NCBI RefSeq assembly: GCF_054482525.1
Contig: NZ_CM137006.1
Reading direction: 5' to 3' (one strand)
Length of the DNA: 64,000 nucleotides
Made by a program: the position numbers and the translations under genes. The notes beneath the pieces were generated by a model, which did not search any database, was not told the origin of the DNA, and saw only the letters and a program-made list of their open reading frames with translations. Position 1 is the stretch's first letter. Each line of letters opens with the position of its first letter. Positions 17,491 to 35,332 of the stretch are shown piece by piece.

Positions 17491-19017
17491 TTAGAAATAA
17501 ATCTCACCATCAACCATATATTTGAGAGCACTTATCGCCTGCTGGGCGGATATTACTTTCATTAAAGGATAGTGTTTAAAAACAATGCCATTCATAAAAT
17601 AGATATCACAGGTTTTATTATCCGTATTAATTATGATTTTTTCGAATGTTTTATAGGCAAGTGTACGGCATAACTCTCGTCCATTTTTACTGGTTAAGTC
17701 AATAGCATAAAAATCACTGAATGAATTTACACCTTTACTCTTCAAAGTTTTCAATGATACCGAAGCCCTTCGTAATTCCTTATCTAATAGTCTTATTTTC
17801 TCTGCTATAGCGGTAACTTCAGGCGCGACAGACAATGCAACGATTAAATTATTAATTTTCATCTGAAGCTCAATAATTTTTAACTCTAAAGTTTCATTAG
17901 CATCTTTCTTGTTTTCAACTGGTTGAATTTTGCTACAATTAAAAAGCAATTCATTAATGATATTATAATCAACCAAATCTCTTTTTATTGATGGCCTGTC
18001 ACATCGATGTAATCTTCTCATCGGACAAACATAATAGCCATGCAAACTTCCAGATACCGCATGAACAATCATGGTATTACCACAAGCCTCACACTTCATA
18101 ACTGTTCGAAGTAGATTTATTAGCATAGGATTCTTGCTACTATTGCTAATACCAAAAGGTGCCAACCGAATTTCCTGTACAGCGTAAAACAAATCATCTG
18201 ATATGACTCTGGGATAATAGCCAGCGATTTCACTTATCCCTTTCCCTCTTGCACGATATGAAGGTACGCATATACCTATCAGAGCTTTATTCGCTAATAA
18301 TTTTTCAATTACAGAAGGTCCCCATGCACTTTCTTTTCCTGAGAAATTCTTTACAGCATGATCATTTAAATACTTGGCTATTGCATTCAATGAGCGCCTT
18401 TCCATCCTGAGTTTAAAAATTAGCTCAATAGTTTTCACCCTGTCGGGGTCTGGAACAAAAGCCGTTCTTTTGTCATCTAAGGAGAGCCATCTCGGACAAG
18501 ACGCCGTCATAATCGTACCTGATTCCAGTGCATCCTGCCGTTTTTTCTTCCATGATAATTTAACCCGACTTGACTTTATCTCGCTTTCTTCATTTGCCCT
18601 TTGTGCTATAAGTATGGCTTTTATTAATGAATATGGCTCATTCAAAGAGTCAATATTATAGACTGTATTGTCGCAAAGAGTTATAACATCAATACCGTGA
18701 TTCAAAATCAATTTCAGACGTTCAATCGCTTCACCGACTTTTTCTCTTGAAAGTCTGTCCAGACTTTCAACTAACAATGTAGTTCCTGGCAATATATAAC
18801 CATGCTCTATAGCATCTAAAAATTCCGAAAAAGCTCCTGATTGTGCATGCTTTCCTTTGAATGCACTTAATCCTAAATCTTCATATGTTATGGTATCAAG
18901 ATAATAATCACTATTTACCTTTAACCATTCAGCAATAAGTCTTCTCTGTCGGTTTAATGAGTCGCCAGACATCTGACCTGGTGATGAAAATCGCATATAT
19001 GCTATGGCTTTTTTCAT
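17491..19017 (-). CDS. Large serine recombinase (ybcK-like), 508 aa
   Basis: N-terminal resolvase/invertase catalytic motif (AIAYMRFSSPGQ...SLNRQ), central recombinase domain, C-terminal Cys-rich zinc-ribbon (CEACGNTM...CPMRRLHRC). Confidence 0.85.
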   Translation of the reverse strand: MKKAIAYMRFSSPGQMSGDSLNRQRRLIAEWLKVNSDYYLDTITYEDLGLSAFKGKHAQSGAFSEFLDAIEHGYILPGTTLLVESLDRLSREKVGEAIERLKLILNHGIDVITLCDNTVYNIDSLNEPYSLIKAILIAQRANEESEIKSSRVKLSWKKKRQDALESGTIMTASCPRWLSLDDKRTAFVPDPDRVKTIELIFKLRMERRSLNAIAKYLNDHAVKNFSGKESAWGPSVIEKLLANKALIGICVPSYRARGKGISEIAGYYPRVISDDLFYAVQEIRLAPFGISNSSKNPMLINLLRTVMKCEACGNTMIVHAVSGSLHGYYVCPMRRLHRCDRPSIKRDLVDYNIINELLFNCSKIQPVENKKDANETLELKIIELQMKINNLIVALSVAPEVTAIAEKIRLLDKELRRASVSLKTLKSKGVNSFSDFYAIDLTSKNGRELCRTLAYKTFEKIIINTDNKTCDIYFMNGIVFKHYPLMKVISAQQAISALKYMVDGEIYF

Positions 19018-19271: not shown

Positions 19272-19604
19272 TTAATGTGGTGTACTTCGTGACAATAAAT
19301 TAATAACCAACACACCGGCACAAATCAACATCATGCCTATAATGGCTGGCAGGTCCAGCCGTTGGCCGAAAAATCCCCATGACAGTAAGCTAATCAGGAC
19401 AATACCGACTCCTGACCAGATAGCATAAGCAATCCCTGTAGGAATATAAGCCAGCGTCTGAGCTAATAACCAGAATGATGCACAATAACAAATAATTGTA
19501 CCAACAGATGGCCATAACCGTGTAAAACCTTCTGAAAACTTCATTAAGGTTGTACCAATGACCTCTGCAAGTATTGCACCACCAAGATAAATATAAGGGT
19601 TCAT
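19272..19604 (-). CDS. emrE: Small multidrug-resistance efflux protein EmrE
   Basis: 110-aa product from MNPYIYLGGAILAEVIGTTLMKFSEGFTRLWPSVGTII..., reads as EmrE; track ORF trimmed to Met19. Confidence 0.88.
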   Translation of the reverse strand: MNPYIYLGGAILAEVIGTTLMKFSEGFTRLWPSVGTIICYCASFWLLAQTLAYIPTGIAYAIWSGVGIVLISLLSWGFFGQRLDLPAIIGMMLICAGVLVINLLSRSTPH

Positions 19605-19671
19605 AGCATATTCTTTCCTGTTCAAACTGGAGAGAATTGTACTACAGTTTGAACTCAACTCACCTGTTTCA

Positions 19672-19974
19672 TCATTGTGTACCCATTGATGTTCTTTTAT
19701 ATACCCTCAATACCCGTTTCATCGCGGCACTCTGGCGACACTCCTTAAAAATCAGATTCGTGCTCACCTTTCCTTCCCGTTCTTCTCTGGTAGCGAACCG
19801 GTAATACACCGTTCGCCAGACCTTACCATCAACGACCAGGATTCCTGCCCGCGCCATTTTAGCCGCAGCCTGATTTATGCTGGTTACGGTTGCGCCTGTT
19901 ACCGCGGCAACGTCCTGTGCACAGAAGCTCTTATGCGTCCCCAGGTAATGAATAATTGCCTCTTTGCCCGTCAT
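19672..19974 (-). CDS. ren: Ren (Rex-exclusion escape) protein
   Basis: MTGKEAIIHYLGTH.SFCA.DVAA.TGATVTSINQAAAKMARAG... reads as lambda Ren. Confidence 0.85.
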   Translation of the reverse strand: MTGKEAIIHYLGTHKSFCAQDVAAVTGATVTSINQAAAKMARAGILVVDGKVWRTVYYRFATREEREGKVSTNLIFKECRQSAAMKRVLRVYKRTSMGTQ

Positions 19975-20672
19975 ACGCTTGCTCCTTTCAGTCCGAACTT
20001 AGCTTTGATTTCTGCGATCTTCGCCAGAGCCTGTGCACGATTTAGAGGTCTACCGCCCATGACAGGAAGTTGTTTTACTGGTTCAGGGATCGCCTCACCA
20101 CGGTTAATTCTCGCAGTCATATGGACAAGCTCATCTGCGGCCTTACGGCGTAATTCCGCATCAGTAAGCGCATTGGCCCGCATGTTCTGATACAGGTTGG
20201 TAACCAGCCAGTAGTGCGCGTTTGATTTCCACGGATAAGACTCCGCATCCGGATACAGGCCTCGCTTCCGGCAATACTCGTAAACCATATCAACCAGCTC
20301 GCTGACGTTTGGCAGTCCGGCGATAACGGATGCTTCTTCCCGGCACCATGCAACAAACTGCCCGGGTGATGGCAGAAATGGTCGATTCTGCCGACGGGCT
20401 ACGCGCATTCCTGCGTTAACCTGTTCCATTGTGGTGATCCCGTTTTCCCGGAAAGCCAGAACCCACTGGCGGCGGATTTCGTTCAGTTCGTTCTGGTCAC
20501 GGTTAGCCAGACTCGCCGGGAAAGTTGCCAGTAACTGGCTGAACACACCGTTGATGATCTGCGCTACCTGCTGTACCTGCGGCTTTTCGTCGTACTGTTC
20601 CGGCATGTTGTTGGCGATCCGGCGCATCTGCTCACGGTCAAAGTTAACCATCTGTGCGGCGATGTTTTTCAT
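19971..20672 (-). CDS. P: Replication protein P (DnaB helicase loader)
   Basis: 233 aa, MKNIAAQMVNFDREQMRRIANNMPEQYDEKPQVQQVAQIINGV..., reads as lambda P. Confidence 0.93.
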   Translation of the reverse strand: MKNIAAQMVNFDREQMRRIANNMPEQYDEKPQVQQVAQIINGVFSQLLATFPASLANRDQNELNEIRRQWVLAFRENGITTMEQVNAGMRVARRQNRPFLPSPGQFVAWCREEASVIAGLPNVSELVDMVYEYCRKRGLYPDAESYPWKSNAHYWLVTNLYQNMRANALTDAELRRKAADELVHMTARINRGEAIPEPVKQLPVMGGRPLNRAQALAKIAEIKAKFGLKGASV

Positions 20673-21598
20673 AGCTCCACCCCGTAAATCCAGTCAGTGT
20701 TCGTCAGGTCGAATTTTGGTTTGCCGGCTGTCACGCCAGCCTGTTGCTTGTTACGGTTGATTTCGAGTTGGGTCCACTTGTCGCGGAGTTTGGCCGGACT
20801 TAGCACGTTACCGGACCAGAAGTTGTCCTGGCATGCCCAGCGGAACAGCACGCACATGTCGCGGTGGTTACGTCCGTCACGTTCACGCATCAGGCGGATA
20901 TCGTTAGCCCACCCTGCAAAATTCGGTTTTCTGGCTGATGGCGCGATGGTCTTCACCATGTCAAACATCCACTCTGCGGCGGTCAGGTCTTCTGCTGTCC
21001 CCCACTTTCTGCCGCTCTGAATTGCAGCATCTGGTTTCACCACAGGAAGATCCTTTTCTGGTTGGTCAGAGGATTCTCCAGAATTCTCGGACGAAAAAGG
21101 TTTTATATTGTCTTTTGTTAGTTTGTCTTTTGTGTTTACCTGATTCGGGTAAACGCCTTTACCTGATTTGGGTAAACTTTTCTTACCTGATTCAGGTAAA
21201 TTTACCTCTTTCAGGTAAACTTTATTTTTCTTACCTGATTCGGGTAATGTTGACCATTCACTGACCACATTATTAATACCGATATTCCGCCCGCTCTGAA
21301 TCAAAATCCCACGCTTTACCAGAACACTTTTTGCAGCAGAACACTTGTGCGGCAATATCCCGGTCAATTCGGACAGTTGCTCGTTGCTCACCCAATCCAG
21401 TTTTTTATTAAAGCCATATGTTTTGCGCATGACAGCCAGGAAGACCAGAAGCTGGTGCTGTGTTAATCCGGCCAGCATCACAGCTTCCAGCAACTCATTT
21501 GCAATGCGCGTATAACCATCATCGAGATCTGCCACGCGCGGCTCCTTTTGTGCCGCATCCGGCACAGGAAAATTGAATATCTCAGCAGTGTTTGCCAT
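20669..21598 (-). CDS. O: Replication initiator O (lambda O-like variant)
   Basis: N-terminal domain O-like (...VADLDDGY.R......LEA...); contains the iteron array; start trimmed to first ATG (Met31); the upstream TTG/GTG alternative is not excluded. Confidence 0.8.
   Translation of the reverse strand: MANTAEIFNFPVPDAAQKEPRVADLDDGYTRIANELLEAVMLAGLTQHQLLVFLAVMRKTYGFNKKLDWVSNEQLSELTGILPHKCSAAKSVLVKRGILIQSGRNIGINNVVSEWSTLPESGKKNKVYLKEVNLPESGKKSLPKSGKGVYPNQVNTKDKLTKDNIKPFSSENSGESSDQPEKDLPVVKPDAAIQSGRKWGTAEDLTAAEWMFDMVKTIAPSARKPNFAGWANDIRLMRERDGRNHRDMCVLFRWACQDNFWSGNVLSPAKLRDKWTQLEINRNKQQAGVTAGKPKFDLTNTDWIYGVEL
21136..21248. repeat. Origin of replication iterons: five copies of TTACCTGATTCGGGTAAA-like 18-mers inside the O gene, with adjacent AT-rich stretch
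   Basis: Copies at about 21136, 21159, 21183, 21202 and 21231, each an internal inverted repeat (TTACC...GGTAA); AT-rich run at 21090-21135. Confidence 0.75.
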
Positions 21599-21684: not shown

Positions 21685-22224
21685 TCATATTGCCCCCAGC
21701 ATGGTGGTTACCATCGCCATCAATGGACCAGCCAGATCCGGGTCCACTCGAAACATCGACACAATGCCTTCACTCATCTCCTTCAGTTTCTGGTGGCGTG
21801 GTGCGTTGAGAATGACCGCCTGCTTTGCCTCACAGAGTTCCTTTTCCATTTCAGCCAGCCGAGCCATGAAGCTATCCTGCTCAACCAGGTGGCCGCGATA
21901 TTCCAGCGGTAGTACCGCCAGAATTGCCGGGGTCAGTTCACGCACGTTATTTCGGTATTTTTCAGAATCGAATTTGTTATCGAGGAAGCGGAACAGCTTC
22001 TGGCGTGCACGGCTGACATCATCAGGGAAATCGATAGTGCCGCCGCCCTGCTCCCGATACTCATTCACAATGAGTGTGGCAACGACATCCTGATTATCTT
22101 CAGCCGACCAGGCGCGGACGGCATCACGGATTTTTTCGTGGCCTGGCACCTGTTTTGTTTGAGAACGATTTATCACCGCAGTCGGGCTAAATCCGCTAGT
22201 CTGTTGGTATGTAAGTGGTTGCAT
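21685..22224 (-). CDS. YdaT-family protein in the cII position
   Basis: 179 aa; segment ...EYREQGGG...TPAILAVLPLEYRGHL... resembles Rac YdaT; position immediately after the cro-like gene. Confidence 0.55.
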   Translation of the reverse strand: MQPLTYQQTSGFSPTAVINRSQTKQVPGHEKIRDAVRAWSAEDNQDVVATLIVNEYREQGGGTIDFPDDVSRARQKLFRFLDNKFDSEKYRNNVRELTPAILAVLPLEYRGHLVEQDSFMARLAEMEKELCEAKQAVILNAPRHQKLKEMSEGIVSMFRVDPDLAGPLMAMVTTMLGAI

Positions 22225-22293
22225 AATTGACTCCTTTAGTTTGAATTGACTGTTAAGTTGATTGCTTATTGTTAAAGAGCGTGAAATGGAAAT

Positions 22294-22524
22294 TTAAGCT
22301 GCGTTCTTTTCGGTGTGTGGAAACAACTTCGGAAGATCCGGGCGAATCTGGTATGCCTTCACTACTCCACCAGTAGCCGTAACAATGCTGCCGACATGTT
22401 CAGGGGATACCTTTGCTTTGTTGTGAAGCCACTTATAGACGGCCTGCTGTGAAACTTCGCAGGCAGCGCCCAGTTTCTTTTGTGAACCAACGATATTGAT
22501 CGCTGTTTTGATAGCTGGATTCAT
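22294..22524 (-). CDS. Cro-like HTH regulator (YdaS type)
   Basis: 76 aa, HTH ...KKLGAACEVSQQAVYKWLHNK...; divergent from the cI-like gene. Confidence 0.7.
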   Translation of the reverse strand: MNPAIKTAINIVGSQKKLGAACEVSQQAVYKWLHNKAKVSPEHVGSIVTATGGVVKAYQIRPDLPKLFPHTEKNAA

Positions 22525-22539
22525 AACAACCTCCGTGGT

Positions 22540-22620
22540 TAATTTGAATCAAGATTAAAACTATGGTTGTTTTTAGTCAACAACCATTTTCGTTTGATGG
22601 AATAAAACCTTGGTTGTACA
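22540..22620. promoter_or_regulatory. Right operator/promoter region (OR-like) between divergent cro-like and cI-like genes
   Basis: Palindrome ATGGTTGTT-N7-AACAACCAT at 22563-22587 and related AACTATGGTT / CCTTGGTTGT half-sites; the same motif family recurs at 24335-24390. Confidence 0.5.
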
Positions 22621-28092: not shown

Positions 28093-28329
28093 ATGTCTCG
28101 ACTAATCACTTTACAGGACTGGGCTAAAGAAGAATTTGGGGACTTAGCACCAAGTGAGCGAGTTCTGAAAAAATACGCGCAAGGGAAAATGATGGCCCCA
28201 CCCGCTATAAAAGTTGGTCGCTACTGGATGATTGACCGAAATTCCCGTTTTGTAGGAACGCTTGCAGAACCGCAACTCCCAATAAACGCAAACCCAAAAC
28301 TCCAACGGATAATCGCTGATGGCTGCTAG
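28093..28329 (+). CDS. xis: Excisionase (Xis-like)
   Basis: 78 aa; N-terminus MSRLITLQDW... parallels lambda Xis MYLTLQEW...; AGGAGG RBS; 3' end overlaps int start. Confidence 0.7.
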   Translation: MSRLITLQDWAKEEFGDLAPSERVLKKYAQGKMMAPPAIKVGRYWMIDRNSRFVGTLAEPQLPINANPKLQRIIADGC

Positions 28330-29461
28330 ACCCCGATCTCACAAAATCTCTATACCCAATTTATATTGCAAATTAGATAAGCGAACCGGAAAGGTATATT
28401 GGCAATACAAACATCCACTATCCGGTCGTTTTCATAGCTTAGGAACTGATGAGAATGAAGCAAAACAAGTTGCTACTGAAGCAAATACCATTATTGCTGA
28501 ACAACGTACCCGACAAATATTAAGCGTCAATGAGCGTCTAGAAAGAATGAAAGGCAGGCGCTCAGACATTACGGTGACAGAATGGCTTGATAAATATATT
28601 TCTATCCAGGAGGACAGGCTGCAACATAATGAACTAAAACCCAACTCCTATCGGCAAAAAGGTAAACCCATTCGTCTTTTCCGTGAGCATTGTGGAATGC
28701 AACACCTCAAGGATATTACCGCACTTGATATTGCCGAAATAATTGATGCTGTAAAGGCTGAAGGTCATAACAGGATGGCGCAAGTCGTGAGAATGGTGTT
28801 GATCGACGTCTTCAAAGAAGCACAACACGCAGGACATGTTCCGCCAGGATTTAACCCAGCGCAGGCAACAAAACAACCGCGAAATCGAGTAAACCGCCAA
28901 AGATTATCACTGCCCGAATGGCAGGCAATATTTGAAAGCATAAGCAGACGGCAGCCCTATTTAAAATGCGGCATGCTACTTGCTCTTGTTACTGGACAAC
29001 GTTTAGGCGATATCTGCAATTTGAAATTCTCTGATATATGGGACGACATGTTGCACATTACTCAGGAAAAAACCGGTTCAAAACTTGCTATTCCGCTTAG
29101 CCTGAAATGCGATGCTCTGAATATTACCCTTCGTGAAGTTATATCTCAGTGCAGGGATGCTGTTGTTAGTAAATATCTGGTCCATTACCGTCACACTACC
29201 TCTCAAGCAAACAGAGGAGACCAGGTTTCTGCAAATACTCTTACAACGGCTTTTAAAAAGGCCAGGGAAAAATGTGGCATAAAATGGGAGCCAGGAACTG
29301 CGCCCACATTTCATGAGCAGCGATCTCTGTCAGAACGGTTATATCGGGAACAGGGTCTGGATACGCAAAAGTTGTTAGGTCATAAATCCAGAAAAATGAC
29401 CGACCGATACAATGATGATCGTGGTAAAGACTGGATTATCGTAGATATCAAAACAGCATAG
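28319..29461 (+). CDS. int: Tyrosine integrase, lambda Int family
   Basis: 380 aa; motifs shared with lambda Int (RSHK near N-terminus, ...VTGQRLGDICNLKFSDI..., ...TFHEQRSLSERLY..., ...LLGHKS...RY.DDRG..W); adjacent to the attachment junction. Confidence 0.9.
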   Translation: MAARPRSHKISIPNLYCKLDKRTGKVYWQYKHPLSGRFHSLGTDENEAKQVATEANTIIAEQRTRQILSVNERLERMKGRRSDITVTEWLDKYISIQEDRLQHNELKPNSYRQKGKPIRLFREHCGMQHLKDITALDIAEIIDAVKAEGHNRMAQVVRMVLIDVFKEAQHAGHVPPGFNPAQATKQPRNRVNRQRLSLPEWQAIFESISRRQPYLKCGMLLALVTGQRLGDICNLKFSDIWDDMLHITQEKTGSKLAIPLSLKCDALNITLREVISQCRDAVVSKYLVHYRHTTSQANRGDQVSANTLTTAFKKAREKCGIKWEPGTAPTFHEQRSLSERLYREQGLDTQKLLGHKSRKMTDRYNDDRGKDWIIVDIKTA

Positions 29462-29574: not shown

Positions 29575-30825
29575 TTACATATTCTTGATGATCGCGTCAC
29601 CAAACTCTGAACATTTCAGCAGTTTAGCGCCTTCCATCAGACGTTCGAAGTCATAGGTTACAGTCTTGGCGTTGATCGCGCCTTCCATACCTTTAACAAT
29701 CAGGTCTGCGGCTTCAGTCCAGCCCATATGGCGCAGCATCATCTCAGCGGAGAGAATAATAGAGCCTGGGTTTACTTTGTCCTGACCGGCATATTTCGGC
29801 GCAGTACCGTGGGTGGCTTCAAACAGGGCGCATTCGTCACCGATGTTTGCGCCTGGGGCGATACCGATACCGCCGACCTGTGCAGCCAGAGCGTCAGAAA
29901 TGTAGTCACCGTTCAGGTTCATACAGGCGATAACATCATATTCAGCCGGACGCAGCAGAATCTGTTGCAGGAATGCATCAGCAATCACGTCTTTAATGAC
30001 GATCTCTTTGCCGGTATTCGGATTTTTAACTTTCAGCCACGGGCCGCCGTCGATCAGTTCACCGCCAAACTCTTCACGCGCCAGCTGGTAGCCCCAGTCT
30101 TTAAACGCGCCTTCGGTGAATTTCATGATGTTGCCTTTGTGAACCAGGGTCACAGAGTCACGATCGTTAGCAATTGCGTATTCGATCGCTGCACGAACCA
30201 GACGTTTGGTGCCTTCTTCAGAACACGGCTTAATACCGATGCCGCAATGTTCCGGGAAGCGAATTTTCTTCACACCCATCTCTTCACGCAGGAATTTAAT
30301 CACTTTCTCAGCGTCGGCAGAGTCTGCTTTCCATTCGATACCCGCATAAATGTCTTCCGAGTTTTCACGGAAGATAACCATATCGGTCAGTTCAGGGTGT
30401 TTAACCGGGCTTGGGGTGCCCTGGTAGTAACGTACCGGACGCAGGCAGATATAGAGATCCAGCTCCTGGCGCAGGGCAACGTTCAGAGAGCGAATACCGC
30501 CACCAACCGGAGTGGTCAGCGGGCCTTTGATGGCAACGCGATATTCACGAATCAGATCAAGGGTTTCAGCAGGTAGCCAGACATCCTGACCATAAACCTG
30601 TGTGGATTTTTCACCGGTGTAAATTTCCATCCAGGAGATTTTACGCTCGCCTTTATAGGCTTTCTCGACTGCAGCGTCGACCACTTTCAGCATGGCTGGG
30701 GTTACATCTACACCGATTCCATCACCTTCAATGTAAGGGATAATCGGATTTTCAGGAACGTTGAGTTTGCCGTTTTGCAGGGTGATCTTCTTGCCTTGTG
30801 CCGGAACAACTACTTTACTTTCCAT
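29575..30825 (-). CDS. icd: Isocitrate dehydrogenase (NADP), 3' end contributed by the prophage
   Basis: 416 aa, [38 protein letters not shown]..., ends ...FGDAIIKNM. Confidence 0.95.

Positions 30826-33958: not shown

Positions 33959-35332
<1,374 letters not shown>

Follow-up and report, generated by a model that had tools for sequence, protein, structure and literature searches.

Results

Organization of the locus

The window, that is, the whole stretch of 64,000 nucleotides analysed here, carries a lambdoid prophage gene set (Q, endolysin, spanin, terminase, Bet/Exo, and integrase), the integrase gene of which adjoins the host gene icd, with purB next in line. Beyond purB, the sizes of the open reading frames fit other host genes expected there. 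The gene for the replication initiator O was found together with that for the helicase loader P, which lies directly downstream and encodes a product identical to lambda P at 231 of 233 residues (99%), matched to the lambda-type C-terminal domain of O. A cII-like and a cro-like gene are located upstream of O, and a divergent S24-type repressor lies beyond the cro-like gene. The coordinates of all features are listed in Table 1.

The O reading frame starts at an ATG that is preceded by GGAGG and aligns with residue M1 of lambda O, to which the protein is 66% identical overall. An in-frame ATG further upstream, at 21688, would give a product of 339 aa, and this longer form is annotated in some records, including that of Lambda_4C10. 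In RefSeq, the gene is labelled only as "replication protein," and no origin feature is given.

The presumed pR/operator region contains a palindrome, ATGGTTGTT-N7-AACAACCAT, at 22563-22587. If the region does act as pR, as we infer, transcription would run through the origin described below. A scan of 20.6-23.4 kb for consensus promoters and terminators gave results no better than those obtained with shuffled sequences, and pR was not picked out by it. Scanning the entire window for Rfam families and tRNAs returned no matches, so there was no match to an oop-like family either.

Table 1. Coordinates of the features at the O-P locus (positions in the window)
Feature	Position	Strand	Remarks
P gene (DnaB helicase loader)	19971-20672	-	PF06992, 5.4e-62; overlaps the O stop codon
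O gene (replication initiator), 309 aa	20669-21598	-	PF04492, TIGR01610; ATG at 21598
28-bp stretch GTCCGAGAATTCTGGAGAATCCTCTGAC	21065-21092	-	Homologous to the lambda GTCAGAG...CTCTGAC inverted repeat
AT-rich region, presumed DNA-unwinding element	21093-21135	-	O-sense ACACAAAAGACAAACTAACAAAAGACAATATAAAACCTTTTTC
Iteron 5	21136-21152	-	O-sense TTACCCGAATCAGGTAA; frame 2, VYPNQVN; adjoins the AT-rich box
Iteron 4	21159-21175	-	TTACCCAAATCAGGTAA; frame 0, LPKSGK
Iteron 3	21183-21199	-	TTACCTGAATCAGGTAA; best dyad, 16/17 positions; frame 0, LPESGK
Iteron 2	21202-21218	-	TTACCTGAAAGAGGTAA; frame 2, VYLKEVN
Iteron 1	21231-21247	-	O-sense TTACCCGAATCAGGTAA; promoter-proximal "extra" copy; frame 0, LPESGK
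O N-terminal origin-binding domain, aa 1-116	21251-21598	-	Specificity determinant
cII-like YdaT	21685-22224	-	Upstream of O
cro-like YdaS	22294-22524	-	Upstream of O
Presumed pR/operator region	22525-22600	-	Assigned from sequence only; upstream of the cro-like/cII-like/O/P operon

Five dyad-symmetric repeats and an AT-rich stretch within O

The sequence-only reading had proposed five dyad-symmetric copies of an element of about 18 bp, spaced 20 to 28 bp apart inside the O coding sequence and adjoining an AT-rich stretch. Five copies of 17 to 19 bp were indeed found, spanning 21136-21247 and having the O-sense consensus TTACCYGAATCAGGTAA, and 12 to 16 of the 17 positions of each copy are self-complementary. 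Read on the plus strand, two copies are TTACCTGATTCGGGTAA, and the other three are variants of it with 1, 1, and 3 mismatches. Once the flanking T and A are counted, most copies form a 19-bp dyad, TTTACC...GGTAAA. Start-to-start distances are 23, 24, 19, and 29 bp in plus-strand order (29/19/24/23 in the direction of O); the proposed spacing was close, each end of its range being off by 1 bp (19 to 29 as measured).

When the 64 kb were searched with up to 3 mismatches allowed, only these five sites were recovered, against 0.14 expected from 100 shuffles, and none of the shuffles (0/100) matched the observed count. The strict pattern TTACC-N7-GGTAA likewise had no occurrence in the 64-kb window beyond the five iterons. 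We took as an origin-type array at least three dyad-symmetric direct repeats of about 18 to 19 bp immediately 3' of the O N-terminal domain, and such an array was found here, starting at codon 118 of O, directly 3' of the domain-coding segment.

An AT-rich stretch of about 40 bp (43 to 46 bp, 21090/21093-21135) directly follows the last iteron on its 3' side in the O direction, which bears out the proposed adjacency. The GC content at 21080-21139 is 25-30%. The 46-mer starting at 21093 is the least stable one across the O and P coding region, that is, a local stability minimum, and on a window-wide ranking it falls only in the least stable 3% of 46-mers. A 15-bp direct repeat, CAAAAGACAA-N5, lies inside the region. 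In the O direction, the last iteron adjoins ACACAAAAGACAAACTAACAAAAGACAATATAAAACC, and GTCCGAGAATTCTGGAGAATCCTCTGAC comes next; the block around the latter, to the right of the AT-rich region, is identical to lambda at 51 of 60 positions. The 28-bp palindrome of the lambda ori is presumably located at the position matching GTCCGAGAATTCTGGAGAATCCTCTGAC.

Iterons 2 to 5 correspond to the four iterons of lambda, since both their spacing and the sequences that follow them match. Iteron 1 is a 10-codon insertion in the alignment with lambda O and is missing from relatives that carry four iterons. At 29 bp from iteron 2, it is out of helical phase with the others, which are 19 to 24 bp apart. The fifth copy, iteron 1, is a promoter-proximal addition to a lambda-like core of four. 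Being out of phase, and weaker in some relatives, it may not contribute on equal terms with the others. The A-rich centre of iteron 2 is kept at the same position in relatives.

Domains of the O protein

The iteron-bearing gene encodes a phage O N-terminal (origin-binding) domain, as judged from matches to Pfam PF04492 (Phage_rep_O; E=1.4e-34, aa 21-115) and to TIGR01610 (phage_O_Nterm; 84.3 bits versus a cut-off of 45.5), so the repeats do lie within O coding sequence. This domain, which ends in ...VSEWS (aa 116), shares 48.7% identity with that of lambda, 66% with that of P22 gp18, and 84.5% with that of Klebsiella phage GZ7, whereas the C-terminal domain is 94.4% identical to the one of lambda O. 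With identity to the lambda domain as low as this, the N-terminal domain would constitute a different specificity module.

In the AlphaFold model, the N-terminal domain is composed of three successive helices and a beta-hairpin (pLDDT 72-88); aa 121-198, for which the iterons and the AT-rich region code, are predicted to be disordered (pLDDT 32-43), and a helical C-terminal domain lies beyond. Because the disordered segment sits between the two domains, the DNA signals would be housed in a tolerant linker. A Foldseek comparison of the N-terminal model with the PDB gave weak matches (E of 0.04 or above), mostly to winged-helix proteins of the CRP/FNR, MarR, and IclR types, which are compatible with the proposed binding by O and not diagnostic of it. 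A sequence search of the PDB found no solved structure of any O relative.

Linkage of the iterons to the O N-terminal domain in relatives

A motif scan of viral contigs yielded 80 loci, 71 with clustered matches and 9 with a single isolated one. The latter have no O gene nearby and were discarded as chance matches. Two of the clustered loci (L020 and L021) start just before their arrays and were left out of the upstream count; in every one of the clustered loci with upstream DNA present (69/69), an O N-terminal homologue (70-100% identity) is located immediately upstream. Exactly five iterons at 29/19/24/23, with an offset of 17 nt from the start of the last one to the AT-rich box, occur at 55 loci. 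Seven loci carry four iterons at 19/24/23 bp, equivalent to the lambda-like core, and a few carry three. Across the 71 related loci, iteron 5 begins at a constant distance of 17 nt from the ACACAAAAGA box that follows it.

This linkage is independent of the C-terminal domain, the helicase-loader type, and the immunity genes. Since the same array is present in Klebsiella phages whose O has an unrelated C-terminal domain, the N-terminal domain and the iterons appear to travel together as a specificity module. At one locus (L049), the AT-rich box is interrupted by an insertion element, which we take to be IS1-like. An apparent sixth iteron, TTACCCAAATCGGGCGA, found 56 bp upstream in six relatives, falls inside the N-terminal coding segment and was set aside as a probable chance near-match.

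Repeats of other O-family genes

A panel of eleven other O-family genes was inspected, and all 11 have dyad repeats of their own at the same position. Lambda has four copies of ATCCCTCAAAACGAGGGA, 933W has six copies of the same repeat, and P22 has four copies of TTACC-N5/6-GGTAA. The repeat is TTAGC...GCTAA in SEN34, TTAGCCAAAACAGCTAA in mEp213 and phiES15, TGTCACCAAAACGGTGACA in mEp043, TTCCCGAAAACGGGAA in mEp237, ATCCCCGAAAACGGGGAT in Gifsy-1, and TGTCTCCAAGTTAGAGACA in Pocitis76. The arrays are mostly followed directly by a box of the ACACAAAAGA type; the version in mEp237 is divergent, and the Gifsy-1 extract ends inside the array. The AT-rich region of the window is homologous to that of lambda, and its first 10-12 bp, ACACAAAAGA(CA), are common across the iteron types in the panel. 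When compared with lambda O in blocks of 60 nt, the DNA is about 40-70% identical through the last iteron and 85-98% identical from the AT-rich box onward. These data point to a mosaic joint at the conserved ACACAAAAGACA box.

Distribution of the probable ori

The 181-bp ori (21080-21260) matches the one of the deposited phage Lambda_4C10 at every position (100% identity). Fifteen phage records contain an O gene with 97-99% identity, and E. coli C or K-12 is given as the host in several of them. On account of these matches, the origin would be expected to support lytic growth. Among 5426 complete E. coli genomes, 2411 (ca. 44%) contain a 176-bp ori segment at a coverage of at least 80%, and in 1703 of these its identity is at least 99%.

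Alternative readings of the repeats

Since the region is coding and three of the copies encode LP(E/K)SGK, the repeats could be read as a merely repetitive peptide in O, an LPESGK-like linker, with no cis-acting role for the DNA. The possibility of mere coding repeats, raised along with the sequence-only reading, is rejected by what was found. The remaining two of the five copies are translated in another frame and give VYLKEVN and VYPNQVN, the dyad that each copy carries in its DNA is meaningless for a protein, and the segment that the copies encode is disordered in the predicted structure. Other O-family genes, moreover, have unrelated iteron sequences at the same position of the gene. Selection at the DNA level was also evident in a comparison with the window of unique sequences of the same geometry among the viral-contig loci: in relatives whose N-terminal coding DNA diverges by 21-24%, the iterons diverge by 5-9%, versus 22-52% for the in-frame spacers and about 28-39% for the AT-rich region. 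The use of two frames, together with iterons far less divergent than the spacers and the N-terminal coding segment, argues that the repeats are a DNA-level feature constrained as DNA. The peptide explanation, to which we give hardly any weight, is as good as refuted already by the reading frames and the conservation of the copies.

If the repeats are DNA sites, they could still serve something other than initiation. Many dimeric regulators typically bind dyad-symmetric 17-mers, so the copies might be operators for another DNA-binding protein, a regulator of the prophage or the host, that happen to lie in O. Against such a coincidence, which we consider extremely improbable, an O N-terminal domain of this type directly precedes the array in all 69 loci that could be examined upstream, and the strict-pattern search found no iteron copy in any promoter region of the 64-kb window. 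Somewhat less remote, and still improbable in our view, is that the sites bind O mainly for control or exclusion (titration, handcuffing, or superinfection inhibition), or that the origin belongs to a cryptic prophage and never fires. Phages of the rep-lambda type are inhibited when lambda iterons and oop are supplied together on a plasmid (PMC3349717). Of the complete E. coli genomes, 44% have the module, many of these probably with defective prophages, and the AT-rich box is interrupted in relative L049. However, O and P are intact in the window, a deposited phage has an identical ori, and the full lambdoid gene set (Q, lysis, terminase, Bet/Exo, and int) surrounds it. The iterons also keep a fixed 17-nt offset to a conserved AT-rich box, which unwinding needs and titration does not.

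Discussion

Taken together, the above-described results make it very likely that the element is a lambdoid prophage replication origin, built like ori-lambda and placed inside the initiator gene O. Apart from the facts cited at the end of this paragraph, what is said here of the lambda mechanism is general knowledge. By analogy with lambda, we infer that O binding, unwinding, and origin firing would take place at this site. Dimers of the winged-helix N-terminal domain of O would bind each dyad-symmetric iteron, and the bound O would assemble into an O-some, by which the DNA is bent and wrapped. On negatively supercoiled DNA, the O-some would then destabilise the adjacent AT-rich box, aided by transcription from pR through the site, and the lambda-type C-terminal domain of O would recruit P-DnaB, from which host chaperones would subsequently release the helicase. 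The facts on lambda behind this scheme are taken from published work (PMC7466680, PMC3349717).

From its sequence, the element appears to be the classical lambdoid ori in a further one of its specificity alleles, a very common one with an extra iteron. Its discovery value is little, since the architecture is that of a textbook lambdoid origin. Papers of 1979-81 on phages 82, 21, and phi80 are said to describe just such variation in their origins. The very same ori may be present in phage 82 or phage 21; given the lambda-like O C-terminal domain and P of the element described here, phage 82 would be a plausible classical carrier of the allele. A sensitive DNA search of a phage collection listed no record of phage 82 or 21 among its matches at high identity to the N-terminal and ori segment. 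Literature searches gave nothing relevant on ori82, ori21, and ori-phi80 and found no description of replication of Lambda_4C10, Bievrevirus, or PhiR30_1, and the exact strings of the four iteron variants were absent from a full-text search.

A bolder reading, which we regard as possible but rather doubtful, is that the TTACCYGAATCAGGTAA module represents an experimentally uncharacterised O/ori type, more widespread in E. coli than any other, in which the fifth iteron is a regulatory add-on and not redundant. The out-of-phase fifth iteron could be such an add-on because variants with three, four, and five iterons have one and the same type of N-terminal domain. If this were true, it would, like the additional iterons of Stx phages, tune O-some assembly or the dependence on host factors. 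The natural series of three, four, and five iterons of a single specificity offers a ready system for studying extra iterons. The strict linkage between N-terminal type and iterons, with the joint at the ACACAAAAGACA box, is a clean case of modular exchange in lambdoid phages, and the linkage could be used for typing the replication specificity of prophages.

Comparison with known origins

One of the closest known counterparts is ori-lambda (NC_001416, 39034-39160), whose four annotated iterons lie at the same position inside gene O. The lambdoid arrangement put forward in the sequence-only reading holds in that the array here, like the annotated iterons of lambda, is situated between the N-terminal domain and a lambda-homologous AT-rich box. 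Iteron spacing is 20/24/23 in lambda versus 19/24/23 for iterons 2 to 5 here. After its iterons, lambda continues with ACACAAAAGACACTATTACAAAAGAAAAAAG... and then GTCAGAGAATTCTGGCGAATCCTCTGAC; its AT-rich box is homologous to the one here (ACACAAAAGACA...ACAAAAGA...), and so is the GTC(A/C)GAG...CTCTGAC stretch. As had also been proposed, the iterons themselves are different in sequence and number: the consensus is ATCCCTCAAAACGAGGGA, in four copies, in lambda and TTACCYGAATCAGGTAA, in five, here. The variant N-terminal domain expected from this difference was found as well, given 48.7% identity to lambda in that domain versus 94% in the C-terminal domain and 99% in P. Iteron and N-terminal domain thus place the element outside the lambda/434/Stx specificity group. 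By analogy, the origin would work like ori-lambda while standing outside its specificity group.

Stx phages 933W and P27 carry six lambda-type iterons, the extra ones being likewise promoter-proximal to a four-iteron core. These phages have lambda-type iterons and a lambda-like O N-terminal domain, whereas the specificity here is another one, and the single added iteron lies at 29 bp, compared with about 20 bp in the Stx phages. Their two extra promoter-proximal iterons are weakly bound, yet they are required for efficient replication (PMC7466680). It is plausible that they provide the best model for iteron 1, which, by the same analogy, is probably an auxiliary site of lower occupancy.

The P22 ori (rep_origin, NC_002371, 32840-32984) lies inside gene 18, at the same position within an O-family gene, and consists of four repeats with TTACC/GGTAA half-sites as here, followed by ACACAAAAGACAATA. 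Of the classical phages in the matches listed, P22 is the one whose N-terminal domain (gp18, 66%) comes closest. The P22 half-sites are, however, 5-6 bp apart versus 7 bp here, and the C-terminal domain of gp18 pairs with the DnaB-type helicase gp12, whereas the partner here is P. The 7-nt spacer, the 66% N-terminal identity, and the P partner place the element outside the P22 gene-18 specificity group as well. Judged by sequence, its iteron and N-terminal type is nevertheless the closest to P22's in the panel.

Origins of the Klebsiella phage GZ7 type, also found in ST11-VIM1phi8.2 and RCIP0034, have the same iteron consensus in five copies at 29/19/24/23 and the same +17 offset. The N-terminal domain of their O is 84.5% identical to the one here, but it is combined with an unrelated C-terminal domain and a DnaC-type loader. 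Iteron 1 is degenerate in GZ7 (TTACCCGTAAAAGGTAC).

Plasmid iteron origins, such as those of pSC101, R6K, and F, combine a winged-helix initiator with arrayed direct repeats that border an AT-rich unwinding element. They follow the same logic as the origin described here, a likeness drawn from general knowledge and not from sequence homology. In contrast to plasmid iterons, which are intergenic, the iterons here lie within the coding sequence of the initiator itself.

Iteron number and domain exchange among relatives

Six viral-contig loci from the iteron-motif scan (L014, L072, L030, L059, L081, and L082) are natural variants that carry three or four iterons of the window's type, not more, with a lambda-like spacing (19/24/23). 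The N-terminal domains of their O initiators are 70 to 80% identical to that of the window and are joined to other C-terminal domains. A weak sixth iteron-like match, TTACCCAAATCGGGCGA, was detected 56 bp upstream of iteron 1, within the coding region of the N-terminal domain, in one sub-lineage (L038, L043, L044, L068, L069, and L074); it probably reflects chance, even though it recurs in six loci.

In the O gene of Escherichia phage D2 (OM475427.1), the N-terminal segment matches that of the window over the first 246 nt only (98.4%), and the match resumes in the C-terminal half; this pattern suggests a recombination joint within the N-terminal domain itself. In one relative, L049 (IMGVR_UViG_2939121850_000004), the AT-rich region of the origin is broken after ACACAAAAGACAAACTAACAA, just past the start of the box, and the interrupting sequence, which begins with GGTAATGCTGCCAACTTACTGATTTAGTGTATGATGGTG, resembles an IS1 end. 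The C-terminal half of O is missing from this locus.

The immunity-proximal region and the start of O

A YdaS-family protein takes the place of cro, and a YdaT-family protein that of cII (see the table). Both families are named "toxins" in Pfam; the PHROGs label for the YdaT family is CII-like activator. The stop codon of the YdaT-like gene overlaps, in ATGA at 21685-21688, an upstream ATG that is in frame with O, so a 339-aa isoform of O is possible, and O is annotated in this form in the deposited phage Lambda_4C10. The palindrome in the interval that separates the repressor-like gene from the divergent cro-like gene, flagged solely as terminator-like in the promoter/terminator scan, is probably an operator overlapping pR/pRM.

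Other features of the window
Feature	Coordinates	Strand	Remark
Serine-recombinase-like gene	17491-19017	-	508 aa; nin region, just downstream of ren
Small multidrug efflux gene, emrE-like	within ORF 19272-19658	-	nin region, just downstream of ren
YdaT-family protein (cII position)	21685-22524, with YdaS		179 aa
YdaS-family protein (cro position)	21685-22524, with YdaT		76 aa
Palindrome	22563-22587		ATGGTTGTT-N7-AACAACCAT; perfect 9-bp arms
Tyrosine-integrase-like gene	28319-29461	+	adjoins host icd
Host icd	29575-30825	-	neighbor of integrase-like gene
Host purB	33962-35332		beyond icd; identity confirmed

Integration site and nin region

The integrase-like gene adjoins icd, followed by purB and by ORFs whose sizes are compatible with rluE, nudJ, mnmA, hflD, and phoPQ. 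This places the prophage at icd, an integration site shared with e14 and phage 21. The other end of the prophage lies beyond the limits of the window. The gene order downstream of ren is the same in Lambda_4C10, where ren is followed by "Small efflux pump EmrE" and a 508-aa gene annotated as hypothetical, and also in the DLP12 prophage of K-12.
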